A DNA stretch of 64,000 nt, taken from assembly GCA_964016885.1 (NCBI GenBank), contig OZ024743.1, positions 306,900,001-306,964,000 on the forward strand. Reading direction: 5' to 3'. Positions 5,990-64,000 of the stretch are shown here, piece after piece (position 1 is the first letter of the stretch; the number at the start of each line of letters is the position of its first letter). Source of the stretch: Eledone cirrhosa (Eukaryota). A model generated the notes under the pieces. It was not told the DNA's origin. It saw nothing but the letters and a program-made list of their open reading frames with translations, and did not search any database. Both the position numbers and the translations under genes were made by a program.

Positions 5990-6056
5990 TTTTATTATGC
6001 GCATTTCAAAAACAAATATCACCATGCAATAATATTTGTGTTTTCATCAGATAAAA
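5990..6056 (-). ncRNA. Minimal type I hammerhead ribozyme (PLE pLTR)
   Basis: ttttat-CTGATGA-aaacacaaatatt..atatttgttttt-GAAA-TGCGCAT-A-ataaaa. Confidence 0.8.
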
Positions 6057-23360: not shown

Positions 23361-24080
23361 TCAGAAGATCCCATTAATTCTTTCCATTGTGTTTTTCTCT
23401 AATTCCTGACTGTTCTCTAGTGGGGGTGTTTTAACTACGATCTTTATATCATCAACGTAGCGGGAGTACATTATCAGGGTTATGGGGTCTTCTAATTGTT
23501 CTTTAAGTTTAAGTTTAAGTCTACTGTCCCACCATACCATGAATAAGTTAGCTATGTCGCCTGCAATGCTAACACCAATGGCTGCTCCCTCCTCTTGGGC
23601 ATATGTTTTTCCATTAAATTTGAACATATGTTTCTTAAGGGTTAATTTTATGCTGGCCCCCACCGCATGTGCAATCATTTTCTTTAGTTCATCGTGGTTT
23701 TCGGGGGTCCGTATGGCTCTGGTCCACCCGTTCCATCTAGCTGTGTGGGTTTTCTTGGCCATTGAAGTAATGGTAGGTGGTCTGCCTCTTGCTGGTCTTG
23801 TAGGGCACAGGTTGCTAAGGTCATATGTGTCTAGATAATTATTACTATAAGTAAGTTTAAGTAGGAGTCCCAGCTCACTGGTTACAATCCCACGGAACTC
23901 AACATTGTTCTCACTGATGATTTCTACGCATTTCTCCACAGCAAAATCCACATCAATAGATGGATACAGGGACACAACATCCATACTACCTATTATGCAG
24001 TTTGTTAGGTCCCTAGATCGGTTACTCTCGGTGATTCTGCTGAGGAGGTCCTCCGTGCTGTGACATACATCTGGGGACAT
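23361..24080 (-). pseudogene. Penelope-like reverse transcriptase fragment
   Basis: IGSMDVVSLYPSI, FKFNGKTYAQEEGAAIG, ANLFM, YSRYVDD; next to an oppositely oriented HHR-bearing pLTR (24160-24375). Confidence 0.8.
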
Positions 24081-24246
24081 TTCAATGATGGGGCGTATGA
24101 TCAGGGAGAGGAAGTAGGACAGTCTGTAGTTACTGGCAATGTTAGCTCCATGAATGGCACCATGAATGGACCTGTTATTTTTCTCTCAAAACATTTTTCG
24201 GATTCCACCCTGCTCGTCCCTTTGATCTTTCTAATTACTCATTCTT

Positions 24247-30081: not shown

Positions 30082-30086
<5 letters not shown>

Positions 30087-32374
30087 AATAATGATGGCTG
30101 CGCGTTGCAAATGGTGGTGCATATGAAAAAGTAAGTCCTTCATCAGTGACCCTCCAACCGTCCCACGCATTTCATCGCTTTAAGGGCCATATGCCTCAGG
30201 TTGGTGCGAACAACGGCTAAAAAGAGTCGTTGGGACACGTAAATAAAGGGGACGTTAGGGTAACAAACAAAATGGTTTAAGCAACGGAAAGTGAGAAGAA
30301 ATAGACAAGTCCCAGATCTCTATGAATATAAACTCGGTGAAATCGTGAACAAGAGACAAAAGACCATCAAACCTGGTTGAAATGTGAGCAAGGAAGGAAT
30401 TTCGCACAGGTCTAACGGGAGAAGAAGAAGAAGAAGAAGAAGAAGAAGAAGAAGAAGAAGAAGAAGAAGAAGAAGAAGAAGAAGAAGAAGAAGAAGAAGA
30501 AGAAGAAGAAGAAGAAGAAGAAGAAGAAGAAGAAGAAGAAGAAGAAGAAGGGGTCTGGTCTACGAATTCGGTAAACATAAGTTTTGTGAAGTCGCAGACG
30601 AGAGAGAGAGAAAAAAATGCCATACCAGCTTGACCAAGACCGCGCGAGAAAAGAATTACACACAGGTCAAACTTGAAGGAGGAGGAGGAAAGAGGAGGAG
30701 GAGAGGTAGTTACAGAGAATGAGTGAGTGAAAGTTGAGGAGGAGGCTAACAGAGAGAGAGACTGCTAGAAAGGGTAAAAGGTACAAAGAACGAGAAAGGG
30801 TAAAAGGTACAAAGAACGAAACAGACGGGTGGCAGCAGAAGAAAGATTATGTGTAAATATGATAATAATGATGGCTGCGCGTTGCAAATGGTGGTACATA
30901 TGAAAAAGTAAGTCCTTCATCAGTGACCCTCCAACCGTCCCACGCATTTCATCGCTTTAAGGGCCATATGCCTCAGGTTGGTGCGAACAACGGCTAAAAA
31001 AAGTCGTTGGGACACGTAAATAAAGGGGACGTTAGGGTAACAAACAAAATGGTTTAAGCAACGGAAAGTGAGAAGAAATAGACAAGTCCCAGATCTCTAT
31101 GAATATAAACTCGGTGAAATCGTGAACAAGAGACAAAAGACCATCAAACCTGGTTGAAATGTGAGCAAGGAAGGAATTTCGCACAGGTCTAACGGGAGAA
31201 GAAGAAGAAGAAGAAGAAGAAGAAGAAGAAGAAGAAGAAGAAGAAGAAGAAGAAGAAGAAGAAGAAGAAGAAGAAGAAGAAGAAGAAGAAGAAGAAGAAG
31301 AAGAAGAAGAAGAAGAAGAAGAAGAAGAAGGGGTCTGGTCTACGAATTCGGTAAACATAAGTTTTGTGAAGTCGCAGACGAAAGAGAGAGAGAGAAAAAA
31401 TTCCATACCAGCTTGACCAAGACCGCGCGAGAAAAGAATTACACACAGGTCAAACTTGAAGGAGGAGGAGGAAAGAGGAGGAGGAGAGGTAGTGACAGAG
31501 AATGAGTGAGTGAAATACGTGTCCCAACGACTTTTTTTAGCCGTTGTTCGCACCAACCTGAGGCATATGGCCCTTAAAGCGATGAAATGCCTGGGACGGT
31601 TGGAGGGTCACTGATGAAGGACTTACTTTTTCATATGCACCACCATTTGCAACGCGCAGCCATCATTATTATCATATTTACACATAATCTTTCTTCTGCT
31701 GCCACCCGTCTGTTTCGTTCTTTGTACCTTTTACCCGTTCTCGTTCTTTGTACCTTTTACCCTTTCTAGCAGTCTCTCTCTCTGTTAGCCTCCTCCTCAA
31801 CTTTCACTCACTCATTCTCTGTAACTACCTCTCCTCCTCCTCTTTCCTCCTCCTCCTTCAAGTTTGACCTGTGTGTAATTCTTTTCTCGCGCGGTCTTGG
31901 TCAAGCTGGTATGGCATTTTTTTCTCTCTCTCTCGTCTGCGACTTCACAAAACTTATGTTTACCGAATTCGTAGACCAGACCCCTTCTTCTTCTTCTTCT
32001 TCTTCTTCTTCTTCTTCTTCTTCTTCTTCTTCTTCTTCTTCTTCTTCTTCTTCTTCTTCTTCTTCTTCTTCTTCTTCTTCTTCTCCCGTTAGACCTGTGC
32101 GAAATTCCTTCCTTGCTCACATTTCAACCAGGTTTGATGGTCTTTTGTCTCTTGTTCACGATTTCACCGAGTTTATATTCATAGAGATCTGGGACTTGTC
32201 TATTTCTTCTCACTTTCCGTTGCTTAAACCATTTTGTTTGTTACCCTAACGTCCCCTTTATTTACGTGTCCCAACGACTTTTTTTAGCCGTTGTTCGCAC
32301 CACCTGAGGCATATAGCCCTTAAAGCGATGAAATGCCTGGGACGGTTGGAGGGTCACTGATGAAGGACTTACTT

Positions 32375-32380
<6 letters not shown>
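30082..32380. mobile_element. ~777-bp tandem array (~1.85 units) plus inverted ~1.15 units; retrozyme-like; each unit holds a (GAA)n tract
   Basis: Units start at 30082 and 30859; inversion at ~31515; (TA)n flanks; the right arm lacks the ~40-nt tail. Confidence 0.8.
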
Positions 32381-32429
<49 letters not shown>

Positions 32430-37008: not shown

Positions 37009-39122
37009 CTATAATGTGGGGCTGTAATACAGGAAAGTTTTGTGCAATTTATGTTTACAAGCCGAAATTGCCTGCGATTTTTTGTTTAATAAGTGGTCTG
37101 TGGCGTAGAGTATTTCCAGGGCCTTAGCGGCGCAGAGGTCACATGGTCTTTTATTGCCGTTATACTATCTAGCCCTAGCTAGGATCTTCCAGTGTAACTT
37201 ATATTGGGTGTGGTTGTCTTTTAGACGCCAGATATAAGCTGAAAGTGACGTCATATTCCTTCTTAGAGGGTAACGAAAAGAATGGGTATGCATGTAAAGA
37301 CGCTGCTTGAATCTATTGGCGGTTAACCCTATGTAGGACATACGGGACGTGGGTGTTTCAACCTTACATTTGTAGACAATGTTACTAGAGAGGCATTTCC
37401 CGGATAGGGGCAGTCAACCCGATTCCTACAATTACAGTTAGTACTAATTACAGGGTTGCACGTGTTCCTACGGCTAGGTAGTTTAGCTAAATTTGAAGCT
37501 GTGATGTTATGTGCAAGGTCAGGAGTCGTAGAGTAAGAAATTTTAATAGTATTTCTATTAAAAATGTTACTATATTTATGTGTAGGGGGGGGGGGGAATG
37601 CTTCGTAATAAGGGAGAGAAAGATCTTAACTAATGGTGTGGCCACCTCCATATTATATGGTGGGTTATACCATATAATGCGTCGGGATCTATTTCTTCTA
37701 GGTCTATTCTCGTACTCTGTATATGCTACCTTATCGACAAATCCACTCCGAGCAAGAGCTTCATTGTAATATGTGGAATGGTCGTTGAAAATAAGCTCGT
37801 TAGTAGAAAGACGGGAAAGCCTCAAAGAAACGTTTCTTACCAGGTTCTTGGTTATGCTGGCAGGATGGTTAGAATGCTTACTTATGTAATTAAGCGTATC
37901 ATTCGGCTTTCTATACGGGTAATACAAGCTATTCGATAAATTGAGGGTAACGTCGAGGTAATTAACGACCGAGAGGTTGGCCTCAACCTTTATAGAGAGG
38001 TTGAAGCCCTTAAAGAAGGCTGTGAGTTCTTTTCTGAACCTGTCGCAAGCACGTGGGCCGCACTTAGTCATGGTCAAAAGACCATCATCACGGTACAAAC
38101 CACAGCCCACGTTGGGGAATTCGTCCTTGATAAAAAAAAGAAGGAAAAGGCCGATAAGATCAGTAACCTCCGCAGAATCGCTGGCGCCCATACTCACATC
38201 GAATGGGGTACTATTAGATTTGTTAATCCAAATAGAGTCGTCGAAATTAATCTGACTTACGGGCATTGAGGATGACATCAACTTCGAAATCCTTAACCAC
38301 TGTGAGTGTTTTAGCGAAATTGATAGCTCTAAGAAGTGGTAAAGTGATGAAGGAGTAGTAATTATTGATGTCGAATTAGATAAAACGGCAATGTTCCTTG
38401 TTGCATATGCCGTTGAACCAATCAATCACCGCGAAAGAATTGTTCCACGGTGCAAGAGGGGCCAAACTTCTAATTTCAGGTATAATTCTATCAAGAATCC
38501 TTTTACTAAGTCTACCTAAATCGGACTTCGTAGGGTTAATAAGCCGAATAGAGGGGTTGTTCGGAAAATTGGATTTGTGATCCTTCAGGGTAAAGTGGGG
38601 AGAGATAGGGTCCAGAGGTTCGATCCGGTCCAGGATGTTGAGATCAGAGGTGATTTTAAACCCAGCATCGTTGATTTCATTAATGACGCACCGATTAGTT
38701 TTACGGTAATCCTTAGTTACAGCATTATGTAGCAGTTGAAGGTAAGTACTGCGCTCCACTTGATATAGGTTGCCAGTTTTGTCGGAATGGACGTGCACAG
38801 CATTAGAATCCTTAATAGAACGAATTCTATTCTTCAGGTCCTGCTGGAAGGAATTGCTCCTATTCCGAAATTTGATACTCCGTATGAGTTCCAAGACATC
38901 ATTTTCGAAGGGTAGCAATGCTGGGTTACACGGGGGGTTATTATAGGTTTCAAACCGAAATTTATCCTGTTTGTTGTCAGCTTGTCGCTGATTATCGAAA
39001 TAAAAGGCACGCCAACGCAACCTTTTAATGAACGCGTCCGTTTTCTGTATCAGGAGTTTTAGGAATGTTTTCCTGCTTGGTACGGGTATGTTCTTTGTAG
39101 AAATATTCAGATGTTTCTGCAT
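37009..39122 (-). pseudogene. PLE ORF: RT plus GIY-YIG endonuclease, frameshifted
   Basis: Track ORFs 38376-39122 (DKTGNLY, RLINPTKSDLG) and 37487-38425 (MGASDSAEV, GLYRDDGL, YLDVTLNL, YPYRKPN, IIWYNPPY). Manual translation of 37440-37009 gives CNC..CP, IVYKC, YIGLT..FKQR, CDLC, CKH. Confidence 0.88.
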
Positions 39123-39277
39123 GATGGATATAAGTCAATAGAGTGCTCAATCGAGGGAGCCAAATAGTAATAATAATAAATTTGAAGACTAAAATCCAAA
39201 GAGGGCTCGATAGGGATAAATATATATCAAATATATAAGAACCGTAGAGCAAATATTTATTAAAATAACAGATTAAA

Positions 39278-50674: not shown

Positions 50675-51392
50675 TCACCACCACTATTATCATCACAGTC
50701 ACTATACCACCACCACCACCACAACCACTTGCCCACCACCAGCACCAGCACCACTACCACCACCACTATTATCATCACAGTCACTATACCACCACCACCA
50801 CTGCCCACCACCAGCACCACCACCACCACCACCACTATTATCATCACAGTCACTATACCACCACCACCACCACAACCACTTGCCCACCACCAGCACCAGC
50901 ACCACTACCACCACCACTATTATCATCACAGTCACTATACCACCACCACCACTGCCCACCACCAGCACCACCACCACCACCACCACTATTATCATCACAG
51001 TCACTATACCACCACCACCACTGCCCACCACCAGCACCAGCACCACCACCACCACCACTATTATCATCACAGTCACTATACCACCACCACCACTGCCCAC
51101 CACCAGCACCAGCACCACCACCACCACCACTATTATCATCACAGTCACTATACCACCACCACCACTGCCCACCACCAGCACCACCACCACCACCATCACT
51201 ATTATCATCACAGTCACTATACCACCACCACCACTGCCCACCACCAGCACCACCACCACCACCACCACTATTATCATCACAGTCACTATACCACCACCAC
51301 CACTGCCCACCACCAGCACCACCACCACCACCACTATTATCATCACAGTCACTATACCACCACCACCACCACCACCAGTGCCCACCACCAGC

Positions 51393-51423
<31 letters not shown>

Positions 51424-52240
51424 CCACCACCACCACTTCCCACCACCAGCACCACCACCACTAATCCGCCCCAACTACCACTACAACACCACCAGCACCA
51501 CCACCACCACCACCACCACTAATCCTCCCCAACTACCACTACAACACCACCACCACCACCACCACTGCCCACCACCAGCACCACCACCACCACCACTATT
51601 ATCATCACAGTCACTATACCACCACCACCACCACCACCAGTGCCCACCACCACCACCAGCACCACCACCACCACCACTAATCCTCCCCAACTAGCACTAC
51701 AACACCACCACCACCACTGCCCACCACCAGCACCAGCACCACCACCACCACCACTAATCCTCCCCAACTACCACTACAACACCACCACTGCCCACCACCA
51801 GCACCAGCACCACCACCTCCACCACTAATCCTCCCCAACTACCACTACAACACCACCACCACCACCACTGCCCACCACCAGCACCACCACCACCACCACT
51901 AATCCTCCCCAACTACCACTACAACACCACCACCACCACCACCACCACTGCCCACCACCAGCACCACCACCACCACTGCCCACCACCAGCACCACCACCA
52001 CCACCACTAATCCTCCCCAACTACCACTACAACACCACCACTGCCCACCACTAGCACCAGCACCACCACCACCACTAATCCTCCCCAACTACCACTACAA
52101 CACCACCACCACCACTGTCCACCACCACCACCACCACCACCACCACCACCACCACCACTGCCCACCACCACCACCACCACCACTAATCCTCCCCAACTAC
52201 CACTACAACACCACCACCACTACCACCACCACTGCCCACC

Positions 52241-52271
<31 letters not shown>

Positions 52272-52476
52272 CTAATCCTCCCCAACTACCACTACAACAC
52301 CACCACCACTACCACCACCACTGCCCACCACCAGCACCAGCACCACCACCACCACCACCACTAATCCGCCCCAACTACCACTACAACACCACAAGCACCA
52401 CCACCACCACCACCACCACTAATCCTCCCCAACTACCACTACAACACCACCACCACCACCACCACCACTGCCCACC

Positions 52477-52507
<31 letters not shown>

Positions 52508-52688
52508 CTAATCCTCCCCAACTACCACTACAACACCACCACCACCACCACCAGCACCACCACCACCACTAATCCTCTCCAACTACCACTACAACACCAC
52601 CACTGCCCACCACCACCACCACCACCACCACTAATCCTCCCCAACTACCACTACAACACCACCACCACCACCACCACCACTGCCCACC

Positions 52689-52719
<31 letters not shown>

Positions 52720-54125
52720 CCACTAATCCTCCCCAACTACCACTACAACACCACCACTGCCCACCACCACCACCACCACCACCACTAATCCTCCCCAACT
52801 ACCACTACAACACCACCACCACCACTGCCCACCACCAGCACCACCACCACCACCACTAATCCTCCCCAACTACCACTACAACACCACCACTGCCCACCAC
52901 CAGCACCACCACCACCACCACTAATCCTCCCCAACTACCACTACAACACCACCACTGCCCACCACCAGCACCACCACCACCACCACTAATCCTCCCCAAC
53001 TACCACTACAACACCACCACCACTACCACCACCACTGCCCACCACCAGCACCACCACCACCACCACTAATCCTCCCCAACTACCACTACAACACCACCAC
53101 TGCCCACCACCAGCACCACCACCACTAATCCTCCCCAACTACCACTACAACACCACCACCACCACTGCCCACCACCACCACCACCACCACCACCACCACC
53201 ACTGCCCACCACCACCACCACCACCACCACCACTAATCCTCCCCAACTACCACTACAACACCACCACCACTACCACCACCACTGCCCACCACCAGCACCA
53301 CCACCACCACCACTAATCCTCCCCAACTACCACCACCACTGCCCACCACCAGCACCACCACCACCACCACTAATCCTCCCCAACTACCACCACCACTGCC
53401 CACCACCAGCACCACCACCACCACCACTAATCCTCCCCAACTACCACTACAACACCACCACCACCACTGCCCACCACCACCACCACCACCACCACCACCA
53501 CCACCACCACTGCCCACCACCACCACCACCACCACCACCACTAATCCTCCCCAACTACCACTACAACACCACCACCACTACCACCACCACTGCCCACCAC
53601 CAGCACCACCACCACCACCACTAATCCTCCCCAACTACCACCACCACTGCCCACCACCAGCACCACCACCACCACCACTAATCCTCCCCAACTACCACCA
53701 CCACTGCCCACCACCAGCACCACCACCACCACCACTAATCCTCCCCAACTACCACTACAACACCACCACTGCCCACCACCAGCACCACCACCACCACCAC
53801 TAATCCTCCCCAACTACCACTACAACACCACCACCACCACTGCCCACCACCACCACCACCACCACCACCACCACCACCACTGCCCACCACCACCACCAGC
53901 ACCACCACCACCACCACTAATCCTCCCCAACTACCACTACAACACCACCACCACTACCACCACCACTGCCCACCACCAGCACCACCACCACCACCACTAC
54001 CACCACTAATCCGCCCCAACTACCACTACAACACCACCACTGCCCACCACCACCACCACCACCACCACTAATCCTCCCCAACTACCACTACAACACCACC
54101 ACCACTACCACCACCACTGCCCACC

Positions 54126-54156
<31 letters not shown>

Positions 54157-54450
54157 CTAATCCTCCCCAACTACCACTACAACACCACCACCACCACTAA
54201 TCCTCTCCAACTACCACTACAACACCACCACTGCCCACCACCACCACCACCACCACCACTAATCCTCCCCAACTACCACTACAACACCACCACCACCACC
54301 ACCACCACTGCCCACCACCAGCACCACCACCACTAATCCGCCCCAACTACCACTACAACACCACCACTGCCCACCACCAGCACCACCACCACCACCACTA
54401 ATCCTCCCAAACTACCACTACAACACCACCACCACCATCACCACAACTGT
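50675..54450. repeat. (CAC)n-based minisatellite with two ~55-65-bp unit types
   Basis: Marker ctattatcatcacagtcactata (50680-51620), then ctaatcctccccaactaccactacaa (51460-54425). Confidence 0.9.
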
Positions 54451-55446
54451 CACCACCTTCAAAGTCAACACCGCCACCACCACCACCACCCTACGACTAC
54501 CATCACCACTACTCCACATCCAACACCGCTACCACTAACACCACCACCACCACTAAACACCACCACCACCAACACCGCTACCACTAACACCACCACCACC
54601 ACTAACACCACCACCACCAACGCCAGCACCACTAACTCAACAACCACCATCACCCCCGACAAAATCAACCATAATCATCAGCAGCAGCAGCAGCATCGCC
54701 GCCGCCGCCACCACTATACCGTCACCATCATCACTACCACTACCACACGTCCATCCCCACAACCACTGTCAACATCAACATCACCACCACCACCACCAAT
54801 GTCATCGCCATCCCTGCTACCACCACCACCAGCAATTAACTGGTAATGAAAATGAAAAGAAGAAGAAGAAGAAAAGAAGAAGAAGAAGAAGAAGAAGAAG
54901 AAGAAGAAGAAGAAGAAGAAGAGAATGACTGCGGTTTCAGAAGAAATTGGTTAGTTTTAATTAATTGGTTCACTGGCTTAATGCCATGAGTTCATCACAC
55001 ACATATATACACATATATTCATACACATACACATCATATATACATGCACATATACACAAACACATATACACATACACATATACACATACATATATACACA
55101 TACATATATACAGATACACATACATTTATGCATGTATATAAATATATACATATATATATACACTTACATATATATATATATATACATACACATGCATATA
55201 TATACATATATGTACACACATACACATATATATACATACTTATATACACATACATATATACATATATACACATACACATATATATATACATACATATATA
55301 CACATATAAATACATATATACCTACATATATACACATATAAATACATATATACCTACATATATACACATATAAATACATATATACTTACATATATACATG
55401 CATATATACATACATATATACATATTTATATACACATACACATATA

Positions 55447-58004: not shown

Positions 58005-58349
<345 letters not shown>

Positions 58350-58962: not shown

Positions 58963-59004
<42 letters not shown>

Positions 59005-59292
59005 CAAATAACGAAACGAAATTAAATTTCGTTTCGTTTGTAACTCACTTTTGTATGACTGACGCTTAAACAATTAAGTTAAAAATGTACATCCACATAT
59101 GTATACTGAAATACTAGTATGCATATGAATACACACACGTATACATATGTAGATGTACCGAGTTTTTCACTGGTCACTTCACTGTGAGTGTCCAGCTATT
59201 CTGTATGCAAACACACAGACAAACCGGTTTTTAGAGTCATACTGGTTTTTGAGGAAACACCTTTCCTCTATTCTCCAGAAAGCCAGACAAGG

Positions 59293-59337
59293 AATATTGA
59301 ACTAGTTTCGATGTTGTTACATCTCATCAGCAATATT
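59293..59337 (-). ncRNA. Minimal type I HHR (also 59759-59803, 60225-60269, 60691-60735, 61157-61201)
   Basis: aatattg-CTGATGA-gatgt-aaca-acatc-GAAA-CTAGT-T-caatatt. Confidence 0.9.
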
Positions 59338-61754
59338 TACCTATCTTCCGGCCTCTCTAGAGAAACGTAAAAGCACATATCGTTATATGCTTTTTCTATG
59401 AAAATTAGTAGTGGGCAGACTAATTTGCATAGAGCATGAGTACGTACCGGTTCAACGGAGACGATAAAAACAAATAACGAAACGAAATTAAATTTCGTTT
59501 CGTTTGTAACTCACTTTTGTATGACTGACGCTTAAACAATTAAGTTAAAAATGTACATCCACATATGTATACTGAAATACTAGTATGCATATGAATACAC
59601 ACACGTATACATATGTAGATGTACCGAGTTTTTCACTGGTCACTTCACTGTGAGTGTCCAGCTATTCTGTATGCAAACACACAGACAAACCGGTTTTTAG
59701 AGTCATACTGGTTTTTGAGGAAACACCTTTCCTCTATTCTCCAGAAAGCCAGACAAGGAATATTGAACTAGTTTCGATGTTGTTACATCTCATCAGCAAT
59801 ATTTACCTATCTTCCGGCCTCTCTAGAGAAACGTAAAAGCACATATCGTTATATGCTTTTTCTATGAAAATTAGTAGTGGGCAGACTAATTTGCATAGAG
59901 CATGAGTACGTACCGGTTCAACGGAGACGATAAAAACAAATAACGAAACGAAATTAAATTTCGTTTCGTTTGTAACTCACTTTTGTATGACTGACGCTTA
60001 AACAATTAAGTTAAAAATGTACATCCACATATGTATACTGAAATACTAGTATGCATATGAATACACACACGTATACATATGTAGATGTACCGAGTTTTTC
60101 ACTGGTCACTTCACTGTGAGTGTCCAGCTATTCTGTATGCAAACACACAGACAAACCGGTTTTTAGAGTCATACTGGTTTTTGAGGAAACACCTTTCCTC
60201 TATTCTCCAGAAAGCCAGACAAGGAATATTGAACTAGTTTCGATGTTGTTACATCTCATCAGCAATATTTACCTATCTTCCGGCCTCTCTAGAGAAACGT
60301 AAAAGCACATATCGTTATATGCTTTTTCTATGAAAATTAGTAGTGGGCAGACTAATTTGCATAGAGCATGAGTACGTACCGGTTCAACGGAGACGATAAA
60401 AACAAATAACGAAACGAAATTAAATTTCGTTTCGTTTGTAACTCACTTTTGTATGACTGACGCTTAAACAATTAAGTTAAAAATGTACATCCACATATGT
60501 ATACTGAAATACTAGTATGCATATGAATACACACACGTATACATATGTAGATGTACCGAGTTTTTCACTGGTCACTTCACTGTGAGTGTCCAGCTATTCT
60601 GTATGCAAACACACAGACAAACCGGTTTTTAGAGTCATACTGGTTTTTGAGGAAACACCTTTCCTCTATTCTCCAGAAAGCCAGACAAGGAATATTGAAC
60701 TAGTTTCGATGTTGTTACATCTCATCAGCAATATTTACCTATCTTCCGGCCTCTCTAGAGAAACGTAAAAGCACATATCGTTATATGCTTTTTCTATGAA
60801 AATTAGTAGTGGGCAGACTAATTTGCATAGAGCATGAGTACGTACCGGTTCAACGGAGACGATAAAAACAAATAACGAAACGAAATTAAATTTCGTTTCG
60901 TTTGTAACTCACTTTTGTATGACTGACGCTTAAACAATTAAGTTAAAAATGTACATCCACATATGTATACTGAAATACTAGTATGCATATGAATACACAC
61001 ACGTATACATATGTAGATGTACCGAGTTTTTCACTGGTCACTTCACTGTGAGTGTCCAGCTATTCTGTATGCAAACACACAGACAAACCGGTTTTTAGAG
61101 TCATACTGGTTTTTGAGGAAACACCTTTCCTCTATTCTCCAGAAAGCCAGACAAGGAATATTGAACTAGTTTCGATGTTGTTACATCTCATCAGCAATAT
61201 TTACCTATCTTCCGGCCTCTCTAGAGAAACGTAAAAGCACATATCGTTATATGCTTTTTCTATGAAAATTAGTAGTGGGCAGACTAATTTGCATAGAGCA
61301 TGAGTACGTACCGGTTCAACGGAGACGATAAAAACAAATAACGAAACGAAATTAAATTTCGTTTCGTTTGTAACTCACTTTTGTATGACTGACGCTTAAA
61401 CAATTAAGTTAAAAATGTACATCCACATATGTATACTGAAATACTAGTATGCATATGAATACACTCGGTACATCTACATATGTATACGTGTGTGTATTCA
61501 TATGCATACTAGTATTTCAGTATACATATGTGGATGTACATTTTTAACTTAATTGTTTAAGCGTCAGTCATACAAAAGTGAGTTACAAACGAAACGAAAT
61601 TTAATTTCGTTTCGTTATTTGTTTTTATCGTCTCCGTTGAACCGGTACGTACTCATGCTCTATGCAAATTAGTCTGCCCACTACTAATTTTCATAGAAAA
61701 AGCATATAACGATATGTGCTTTTACGTTTCTCTAGAGAGGCCGGAAGATAGGTA

Positions 61755-61799
61755 AATATTGCTGATGAGATGTAACAACATCGAAACTAGTTCAATATT
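61755..61799 (+). ncRNA. Minimal type I HHR in the inverted arm
   Basis: Same fold; predicted cleavage after 61792 (GUU). Confidence 0.9.
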
Positions 61800-62480
61800 C
61801 CTTGTCTGGCTTTCTGGAGAATAGAGGAAAGGTGTTTCCTCAAAAACCAGTATGACTCTAAAAACCGGTTTGTCTGTGTGTTTGCATACAGAATAGCTGG
61901 ACACTCACAGTGAAGTGACCAGTGAAAAACTCGGTACATCTACATATGTATACGTGTGTGTATTCATATGCATACTAGTATTTCAGTATACATATGTGGA
62001 TGTACATTTTTAACTTAATTATATATATATACATAATAGAAAAAACGAACAAGTTTCGTTTACATATGAAAAATATTTATTGCGTATCGACCTGTTACGC
62101 GCGTTTCGCATAGGGTTGGCTCAAGGTGGCCCATAGGTGTTATGAACCCGACTCCAGTATCGATCTGTCCTCAGTATTTCACCGTACTAGCTAGACTTTA
62201 TATATATATATATATATATTTATCACTTATTTTTTATCATTTATTTTGTTTTGACCTGTTTAGCTTGATTTAGTTTTTGGCTTGGGTGGTTAATGCTTTC
62301 TTGACCACCTTTTCAGTTTTGTATGGCTTCTTAACACATTGTTTAGCTCTGGTTTTTAACTATTGAGCACTTTGCCAGTATCATTTCTGATTTTTGCGTT
62401 TCGCTTCGCTTTTCCTGCCCGCCGAAAATGCGATTCTCGCTGAATCTTTATTTGTATATATATATATATATATATATATA

Positions 62481-64000
62481 ATAAATAATAATAATAATGA
62501 AATTATTGTGTAGAATGCTCAGGTGCACTACAACTCATCAAAGATGCATGTATAGTACATAGAATAATGTACAAATGTCAGGAAAATGAACAGTGTATGA
62601 GTCATGATATAATAACAATAACAATAATGAAATATTGTGTACAGTGCCCAGGTGCACCACAACTCATCAAAAAAGTGCATGTACAGTACATAGGGCAATG
62701 CGCAAACATCAGTAAAATGAACAGTGCACGAGTCATGATACACACATGTGTGCATGTGTATGGAAGGGGTACATCAGGTGTAGTTTTGGCGTATTTCGGG
62801 AAGCATGAGTGTCTTAAAGGATGCAGTGTCTCGGCAGCTAACAATTGACGCAGGCAGTTTGTTCCATGCTTCAGCAACTCTGAGCGTGAAAAAATGTCTG
62901 CGAAAGTCATGGGAGCTGTGCTGTTTTCTTATCTTGTAGGCATGTCCACGTGTGTTAGACACATGGAGATCAAAGAGGCGCTCAGGGTTGCAGTTGGCGA
63001 GATGGTTAAAAACTTTGTGGGTATTCACCAAGTCCATTGCCAGACGTCGGAGCTTCAATGAATCCATGCCCAGGGAAGCAAGGCGTTCAGAGTATGGTAG
63101 GTGTCTGGTGGAGGGTATGCGCTTGGTTGCACGTCTCTGAACAGTTTCCAGGAGGTCAATGTTCCGAGCAAGATAGGGGTTCCAGACTGATGATGCGAAT
63201 TCCAAGTGTGGTCGCACCATAGCTGTATACAGTTTTAAATAGATGGCTGGAGAGCGGCTAACAAAGGTCTTGCTGAGTGATGCCAAGACACCCTCGGCCT
63301 TCTTGACAATCTTAGAGACATGCTTTGTCCAACGCAAATCGTTGCTGACAGTAATGCCCAGGTCACGTTCACAAGAGGACTTTTTGATGTCAGTGTTGTG
63401 GAGGGAGTATGTGGATGCTGGATTTTTCCTTCCAAAATGCATGGTGGTACACTTGTCCACAGCCAGCTTCAGTTGCCAGTCTGTGATCCATTGCTGCATT
63501 GTGTCCAGGTCTGATTGTAGGAAAGAGTTGTAAATTTCAGGATCAGTCCTTTTGATTTCAAGGTACAGCTTGATGTCATCTGCATATTTTAGTACCGTGG
63601 CATTCTGTAAGTTGGCATCTATGTCATTAATATATGCCACAAACAAAAGAGGACCAAGAATAGATCCCTGTGGTACACCAGATGACATCTCATATGGTGA
63701 AGAATGCTGTCCTAGAACCGTGACTACTTCCTTTCGGCTGAGAATGAAGGATTTCAGCCAGTCGAAAAGATCATCCCTCACACCCATTGCAGAGAGTTTT
63801 GCCAAAAGTCTTTTGTGTGGCACAGAATTAAAAGCCTTAGCAAAGTCAAGGTAAACAACATCCACCCATGAGCCGCTGTCAGTGATCCGGGTGATGTCCT
63901 CAAGGAACTCGATAAGCTGATCACAGCAGCTGGAGTTAGGGATAAATCCAAACTGTGAGGGCCGGATGAGGCTGTGAGAGCTCCAGAAGTTCCAAAGTGT
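62481..64000 (-). mobile_element. CR1-clade LINE, 3' portion with (ATT)n tail
   Basis: RT ORF, 3'UTR and tail; continues beyond the window. Confidence 0.85.
62774..64000 (-). CDS. CR1-type reverse transcriptase, C-terminal part (open at the window edge)
   Basis: YLDFAKAFNSVPH, SGVPQGSILGPLLF, YADDIK, ERDLGI, VRPHLEF, LETVQRRATK, TRGH. Confidence 0.88.
   Translation of the reverse strand, partial: TLWNFWSSHSLIRPSQFGFIPNSSCCDQLIEFLEDITRITDSGSWVDVVYLDFAKAFNSVPHKRLLAKLSAMGVRDDLFDWLKSFILSRKEVVTVLGQHSSPYEMSSGVPQGSILGPLLFVAYINDIDANLQNATVLKYADDIKLYLEIKRTDPEIYNSFLQSDLDTMQQWITDWQLKLAVDKCTTMHFGRKNPASTYSLHNTDIKKSSCERDLGITVSNDLRWTKHVSKIVKKAEGVLASLSKTFVSRSPAIYLKLYTAMVRPHLEFASSVWNPYLARNIDLLETVQRRATKRIPSTRHLPYSERLASLGMDSLKLRRLAMDLVNTHKVFNHLANCNPERLFDLHVSNTRGHAYKIRKQHSSHDFRRHFFTLRVAEAWNKLPASIVSCRDTASFKTLMLPEIRQNYT

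Follow-up and report, generated by a model that had tools for sequence, protein, structure and literature searches.

Paired insertion ends and shared A>G variants in a dispersed retrozyme family of Eledone cirrhosa suggest copying of circular RNA into the chromosome

How does a retrozyme return to the genome? Circular RNAs of retrozymes are known; reverse transcription on these circles has been proposed, as has a PLE as mobilizing partner, and a preprint of 2026 prefers local amplification. The question is raised by an array in the Eledone cirrhosa genome, at positions 58998–62020 of the 64,000-nt stretch that we analyzed (contig OZ024743.1, positions 306,900,001 to 306,964,000; hereafter the window), in which identical hammerhead-bearing units are joined to an inverted copy inside a (TA)n tract. 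Our data suggest that such arrays arise by the repeated copying of a single circular RNA into the chromosome, a step that has mostly been proposed so far. What is new here is the retrozyme family itself; its kind, the non-LTR retrozyme, is already known.

The direct arm of the array (arm A, 58998–61464) consists of 5.29 units of 466 nt with the RNA sense on the minus strand, and identity at a period of 466 was without mismatch across its 2,467 nt. The inverted arm (arm B, 61463–62020, plus strand) has 558 nt, or 1.20 units, and is 100% identical to the units of arm A, which it overlaps by 2 bases at 61463–61464. A (TA)n tract adjoins each end, at 58967–58997 on the left and 62021–62031 on the right. 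The initial annotation had described this arrangement, as about 5.3 identical units plus an inverted 1.2-mer inside (TA)n, and had placed the right end correctly at 62020; its left end, 59001, is really 58998, where the assignment of the last bases is ambiguous with TA. We numbered the 466-nt monomer so that M1 is the base directly 3' of the predicted GUU cut. Arm A then has its outer (RNA 3') end at M302 and its inner end at M166, and arm B runs from M137 to M228, its outer end being a second fixed site. The inner junction has 2 nt of microhomology and joins ends that are separated by 29 nt on the circle. A 74-nt tail (M229–302; 58998–59071, minus strand), which lies between the two end sites and contains a 13-bp hairpin, terminates arm A, and the end of arm B has no such tail.

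Minimal type I hammerheads recur at 466-nt intervals from copy 1 at 59293–59337 (minus strand), with U17 at 59300, 59766, 60232, 60698, and 61164 in arm A. The arm B copy is at 61755–61799 (plus strand), and its U17 is 61792, the base after which cleavage is predicted and the same position that had been proposed before. All six motifs have a 7-bp stem I, CUGAUGA, a 5-bp stem II with a 4-nt loop, GAAA, a palindromic ACUAGU, and the cleavage triplet GUU. Their earlier description as perfect holds for stem I, CUGAUGA, stem II, GAAA, and ACUAGU, and needs a qualifier for stem III, which is merely 2 bp closing a 2-nt loop. Each of the six matched the Rfam model Hammerhead_HH9 (E 2e-6, 36.5 bits), below its gathering score of 52. 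In folding predictions, the MFE structure of a lone motif lacked the hammerhead fold, and the natural two-motif stretch was predicted to form a double hammerhead through ACUAGU (pairing probability ~0.4), in which stem I closes off the monomer that lies between both motifs. The circular monomer had a predicted fold of -155.3 kcal/mol, compared to -96.4 ± 5.5 for 60 dinucleotide shuffles, or ~11 SD lower. The unit has a GC content of 36%, and its longest stop-free frame is 60 aa, in agreement with the absence of coding capacity noted at the outset. An autonomous PLE would need an ORF for an RT plus GIY-YIG and the unit has no ORF, so this identity was rejected. Rfam matches to miRNA and sraA models in the window were below cut-off and caused by hairpins and simple repeats, and were set aside.

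The array belongs to a non-LTR retrozyme family that is dispersed in the genome, and represents a single young insertion. A candidate search of the 3.0-Gb genome with the unit gave 120 matches, from the 40 of 71 candidates that were scored. A 31-nt core of the unit has 967 exact genomic copies, and M302 directly abuts (TA)n at 1,792 exact junctions genome-wide, compared to 0 for reversed-pattern controls, bearing out the dispersed copies that the initial annotation had anticipated. For closer analysis we fetched 34 loci from the candidate search, 9 that were the first places of the core search, and 40 among the first 100 junction places. The 1,792 junctions had been considered as ends of an autonomous element, and this was discarded, as 40 of 40 sampled junctions were those of the retrozyme itself (88–99% identity). 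Units of the relatives measure 465–469 nt, and two-sided compensatory changes in stem II were found in 6 of 18 aligned monomers. Two arrays of the family are very long, one with >60 units (C1:81848274-81878117) and one with 31 (C1:5738326-5752444); both retain a short inverted arm, and they are candidates for source loci and for cases of later expansion. A sister 466-nt hammerhead repeat with ~65% identity and a GUA triplet was seen at L076:4502-5954, and also at L077, L103, the L043 flank, L127, and L145. It has kept the core and ACUAGU, its stems are altered, and it ends at the position equivalent to M302. A third tandem hammerhead family, with an unrelated sequence and a 485-nt unit, is located in (TA)n at L046:4970-6160.

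End sites were counted in 80 insertions, after the segmental duplicates L034, L035, L060, and L165 had been removed. Two arms were present in 58 of these, all tail-out with none head-out, and several of the apparently single arms have a partner arm of 7–20 nt. The 58 comprised 49 insertions with one end at site A and one at site B (A+B), 7 with site A and another site, 2 A+A, and 0 B+B, where site A is M302 exactly in 46 of the 49 A+B loci and site B is M225–233. Pairing was also evident in loci selected independently of any end, with 26 A+B versus 2 A+A (p 3e-6 against random pairing). The array in the window, with its A end at 58998 and its B end at 62020, is typical of the family. Of 115 outer ends in the two-arm insertions, 105 adjoined at least (TA)3, in a sample partly picked by a TA-containing pattern. 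Inner ends were variable, mostly with 0–6 shared or extra bases at the join; the longer arm can be either one (32 versus 17), and in 21 of the 49 A+B loci each arm is longer than one unit. Shared flanks of 13–14 nt, representing target duplications, were found in L033 and L037 (two non-TA targets) and in none of 5 other loci tested, and at 58998–62020 the (TA)n masks any duplication. Judged from sequence, the one-sided tail of ~74 nt together with the inverted arm is the two-start tail signature of PLEs. The suspicion of a PLE inversion signature, raised for this one array, thus extends to 58 of 80 insertions as two arms and to 49 of those 58 as A+B with the tail at one end, and a recent, single-event insertion is likewise supported. 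L061 and L062 are single arms that both halt at M329 against (TA)n, one having an A end and the other a B end; they may be the two parts of one insertion, separated by a subsequent event or in the assembly.

Elements of other families were observed in the same window. At 62031–62200, there is a tiny two-armed insertion of an older hammerhead-bearing family (2,107 candidates, ~91% identity), with end sites ~70 nt apart and a tail on one arm only. At 58111–58290, a short near-perfect fold-back in (TA)n has a left arm with a ~79-nt tail and a right arm without one. This element recurs beside L050, L063, L089, L110, L135, and L146, and three of its copies have an identical inner stop base in both arms and differing spacers (5–7 nt), which suggests a defined RNA 5' end. 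A unit of ~780 nt with (AGA)n is present at 30084–32382 as 1.8 direct and 1.1 inverted units in (TA)n, with a tail of ~40 nt and CUGAUGA near the end without an obvious GAAA; its arms differ at a site where the copies within each arm agree, which may mean two templates. The like geometry in these three families suggests that the route proposed here might be a general origin of PLE inversions and tails. Hammerhead-like motifs of other families were seen at 6050, 9350, 32534, 39951, and 47897, and dozens more families were present in the fetched flanks. Broken remnants of PLE-like RT ORFs, with RVT_1 weak or absent, are at 37490–39134 and 23364–24185 (minus strand), a LINE-like RT is at 62777–64000 (minus strand; RVT_1 E 2e-30), and ~4 kb of degenerate ACC-rich repeat with periods of 40 and 65 nt occupies 50706–54654.

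Which RNA served as the template can be approached through the variants of the family. All unit copies were aligned, and each locus was compared with its nearest loci, using a distance that ignores A/G differences. The variant set of 79 loci included the duplicate L165, which adds no A>G, and variants were not scored in L104 and L100, which are too short. With ancestral states based on a ~4% sample of insertions, variants present in every copy of a locus were 97 A>G versus 28 T>C on the ribozyme strand (p 3e-11). The excess recurred in a replication set of 20 loci fetched later (22 versus 6, p 0.002) and without the three most edited loci (65 versus 28). By locus, the sign test was weak in the first set (19 versus 10, p 0.14) and stronger with all loci (26 versus 10, p 0.011). 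Variants in single copies were symmetric, with 39 A>G and 46 T>C, and the excess of ~360 single-copy A>G that separate editing of each unit would predict was absent. ADAR avoids a 5' G neighbor. The 5' neighbors of 94 A>G events were U in 41, A in 41, C in 9, and G in 3, compared to a background of U 47, A 48, C 27, and G 25 (n = 147). The events were clustered (per-locus mean 1.4, variance 4.2), with A>G making up 16 of 17 variants in L063, and A_deamin genes are found at four places in the genome. This strand-biased, clustered, 5'-G-poor pattern is what we take to be the mark of ADAR editing.

Fixed A>G were present in 30 of the 79 loci, as 29 distinct sets, with recurrent sites at M92, 120, 136, 259–278, and 340–345. 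The bias was also seen in A>G repeated inside one arm (84 versus 28) and in arms of <2 units (21 versus 6, in 7 of 37 loci); between arms, 74 A>G were concordant and 4 discordant. Since editing varies per molecule, a linear multimer should have units that differ from each other, and there is no unit-specific A>G excess. An edited array therefore most likely derives from one edited monomer, as shared A>G are biased and single-copy variants are symmetric. The array at 58998–62020 carries just two A>G by itself, and these together with A401U are its only differences from its two nearest relatives. A92G (61884, plus strand; 59208, 59674, 60140, 60606, and 61072 in arm A) and A120G (61912, plus strand; 59180, 59646, 60112, 60578, and 61044) each occur in all 6 copies after a 5' U and are probable A-to-I edits of the template. 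A401U (61727, plus strand) is in 6 of 6 copies and both arms and is private among the sampled loci. In contigs (of unrecorded kind) from four public runs of three studies, both M92 and M120 are A. The edits shared by all units of a locus provide genomic support for the rolling-circle reverse transcription that the array had first brought to mind.

Several observations count against a simple picture of editing. Fixed G>A also exceeded C>T (29 versus 9), perhaps due to mis-polarized older edits, and edited sites were no more paired in the predicted fold than other adenosines (0.63 versus 0.61). By arm length, 65 A>G were found in 30 loci with the longer arm A versus 1 in 14 (p 0.009, post hoc). 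Among 8 scored loci whose arms cannot be fold-back copies of each other, no A>G was common to both arms and 2 were discordant, so a single-RNA origin of both arms is supported solely at loci where copying of arm A as DNA also fits. Edits in the tail hairpin (M259–278) were seen in 3 of 7 loci with site A and another site, 1 of 2 A+A, 3 of 16 single-arm, and just 3 of 44 A+B loci. The hairpin may position the second start, on small numbers and post hoc.

We hypothesize that the family is a non-autonomous non-LTR retrozyme that is mobilized in trans by a PLE, through an edited circle and paired priming at two sites, and we give this reading a probability of roughly 0.6. The proposal starts from the architecture, the fixed paired ends, the target tract, the strand- and context-biased shared A>G, and the exact junctions that are seen in the DNA. 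An array would be transcribed, and adjacent minimal hammerheads would pair via ACUAGU and cut after GUU. Stem I would hold the ends of the 466-nt monomer together for ligation into a circle, which would persist because it has one half-ribozyme only. ADAR would edit part of the adenosines within the helices of the circle. A PLE protein would then nick a (TA)n tract on each strand, and reverse transcription would be primed from each nick, at M302 and at M225–233 of one circle. Each enzyme would make its own, variable number of turns on the circle (5.29 and 1.20 at 58998–62020) before the two cDNA 3' ends join through microhomology to give two tail-out arms. That the template was a circular monomer RNA is, as a separate part, very likely, and one RNA may have served both arms. 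The fully specified version, in which a PLE protein performs paired target-primed reverse transcription on one closed ADAR-edited circle from starts ~74 nt apart, one per target strand, with the edits serving as single-molecule germ-line barcodes, stands in our view at even odds.

An unlikely but serious alternative retains the circle as template and has arm A alone reverse transcribed, after which the cDNA would fold back and the resulting DNA copy, once cleaved at site B, which is AT-rich, would be linked to the target DNA. The initial annotation had spoken of such folding back, and the arm lengths at 58998–62020 (2,467 versus 558 nt) and at 40 of 49 A+B loci do permit it, as does the position of the array's inner ends, 29 nt apart within a long hairpin. 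It would also account for shared edits lying chiefly in loci with the longer arm A, for near-perfect palindromes at 3 of 49 loci (1.2 expected), and for the tail, which the available part of PMC8557442 ascribes to endonuclease resolution of an intermediate. Against this, both outer ends are fixed RNA-3' ends, and the two start sites correspond to in vitro RT start sites of another PLE (PMC11167929). In addition, neither arm can be a copy of the other at 9 of 49 loci, where 0 would be expected under pure fold-back and 12.6 ± 2.7 under independent arms, and inner ends were mutually unrelated, lying within 30 nt of each other in 7 of 49 loci compared to 6.4 by chance. Two separately primed cDNAs suit the family better than fold-back.

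It is still less probable that no circle was involved, and that the template was a linear read-through multimer from a long source array, or that unequal crossing-over later enlarged a short insertion, as in the local-amplification model of bioRxiv 10.64898/2026.07.22.740005. Arrays of 12 to >30 units do have partly shared variants typical of DNA-level expansion; arm A could likewise have been expanded from fewer units, so 5.29 is perhaps not the number of turns made by the RT. Loci with the longer arm B have no editing signal. Some arms end at the cut site (7 of 90 inner ends at M1–12, p 0.009), which counts against purely circular templates and implies that some were linear or reopened. Crossings of the cut site with intact flanks were exact in 252 of 252 cases, however, without a raised error rate around it, and the symmetry of single-copy variants and the distinctness of the edit sets also oppose this alternative, as does the same edit occurring twice in arms of <2 units, which expansion cannot produce. 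Linear twin priming was rejected in particular, as the stop that it predicts was absent: inner ends of arm A were at the B site in 2 of 40 cases (1.3 expected). Least probable, and in our view very improbable, is that identical units or the inversion are artefacts of assembly or polishing. There are 0 differences across 3,025 nt and public contigs stop short of the right junction, and the exact unit number at 58998–62020 could be wrong. Nevertheless, 58 loci have equal geometry with differing inner junctions, and in most of them individual units differ; the three variants by which the array departs from its nearest relatives occur in both arms, and run X1 has 12 loose ends that pass from M302 into (TA)n.

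An autonomous partner was sought in the genome. An intact young RT family has 58 copies of 98–100% identity with an ORF of ~777 aa, and a second intact family has an ORF of 808 aa. Both have a GIY-YIG-like C-terminal motif by eye, and both have two alternative end sites, each of them against (TA)n. Pfam searches of the candidate ORFs returned RVT_1 alone or nothing, and the intact ORFs might be Hydra-like and Neptune-like. As partners, these two families and two more distant subfamilies were set aside, since simple repeats were all that they had in common with the unit, and no PLE with unit or pLTR homology was found among 38 loci from two protein searches.

The family makes both proposals on the return of retrozymes testable from genome sequence, as paired ends bear on PLE machinery and shared edits on a circle versus a linear multimer. 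If true, heritable A-to-I edits are fixed through a circRNA, and ADAR edits may drive the sequence evolution of the family. The retrozyme also offers a small natural RNA on which two start sites are mapped, useful for in vitro work on PLE integration, and the counting of fixed versus single-copy A>G is transferable to coral, mussel, and amphibian retrozymes.

In LINE-1 twin priming, two target-primed cDNAs are joined by microhomology to create an inversion, from non-overlapping parts of one linear RNA. The retrozyme arms differ in that they can share any part of the unit and each of them begins at a fixed internal site. A closer likeness is to PLEs (PMC11167929 and the accessible part of PMC8557442), which share the inverted arm on the 5' side, a tail at one end, two internal starts, an AT-rich or (TA)n target, and a minimal hammerhead. 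In PMC11167929, the PLE tail is delimited by two internal sites at which the RT starts, and AT-rich DNA is nicked and extended on both strands. In that in vitro study of an anole PLE, the start site was without strand difference and hammerhead cleavage was not needed, which counts against our preferred reading. The family differs from PLEs in having no ORF, a tail of ~74 nt compared to 30–40 nt (PMC11167929 and, as far as its accessible text goes, PMC8557442), more than one unit in both arms at many loci, and start sites that are almost strictly one per arm. The Chlamys non-autonomous PLEs such as MRC1, in the same portion of PMC8557442, are likewise non-coding PLE dependants with multicopy head-to-tail insertions; they resemble the 3' ends of autonomous families, are mostly without hammerheads, and a circular template is not claimed for them there.

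Xenopus pLTR-derived retrozymes have also been regarded as non-autonomous PLE derivatives, in the accessible text of a preprint (bioRxiv 10.64898/2026.07.22.740005) that draws on co-occurrence and pLTR homology and favors local tandem amplification. Its main text is without the words "tail" or "target site", and it reports that 8 of 9 Xenopus dimers failed to cleave, which counts against our preferred reading. Those elements have pLTR homology, whereas for the Eledone family no pLTR homologue turned up among the 38 loci from two protein searches, and the clues to the mechanism come from where its insertions end and from its edits. Searches of the main texts of open-licence PMC and bioRxiv articles turned up no description of retrozyme insertions with paired tail ends or ADAR imprints. 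In the available portion of PMC7229834, reverse transcription on circles and PLE mobilization of retrozymes are proposals, editing is mentioned as a possibility, and the minimal, dimer-dependent hammerhead is linked to PLEs and amphibians. The two-armed insertion, the tail, and the ADAR imprint are not described for retrozymes in that portion, and 466 nt is slightly over its descriptive unit length of 150–450 bp. The metazoan non-LTR retrozymes presented there are otherwise alike, with tandem low-GC non-coding units of one type I hammerhead each, a stable predicted fold, dimers to large multimers, TSDs of >4 bp where visible, and co-occurring PLEs. By all features tested against that text, the Eledone family is a non-LTR retrozyme of this kind, and from its insertions it appears to work like a non-autonomous PLE.
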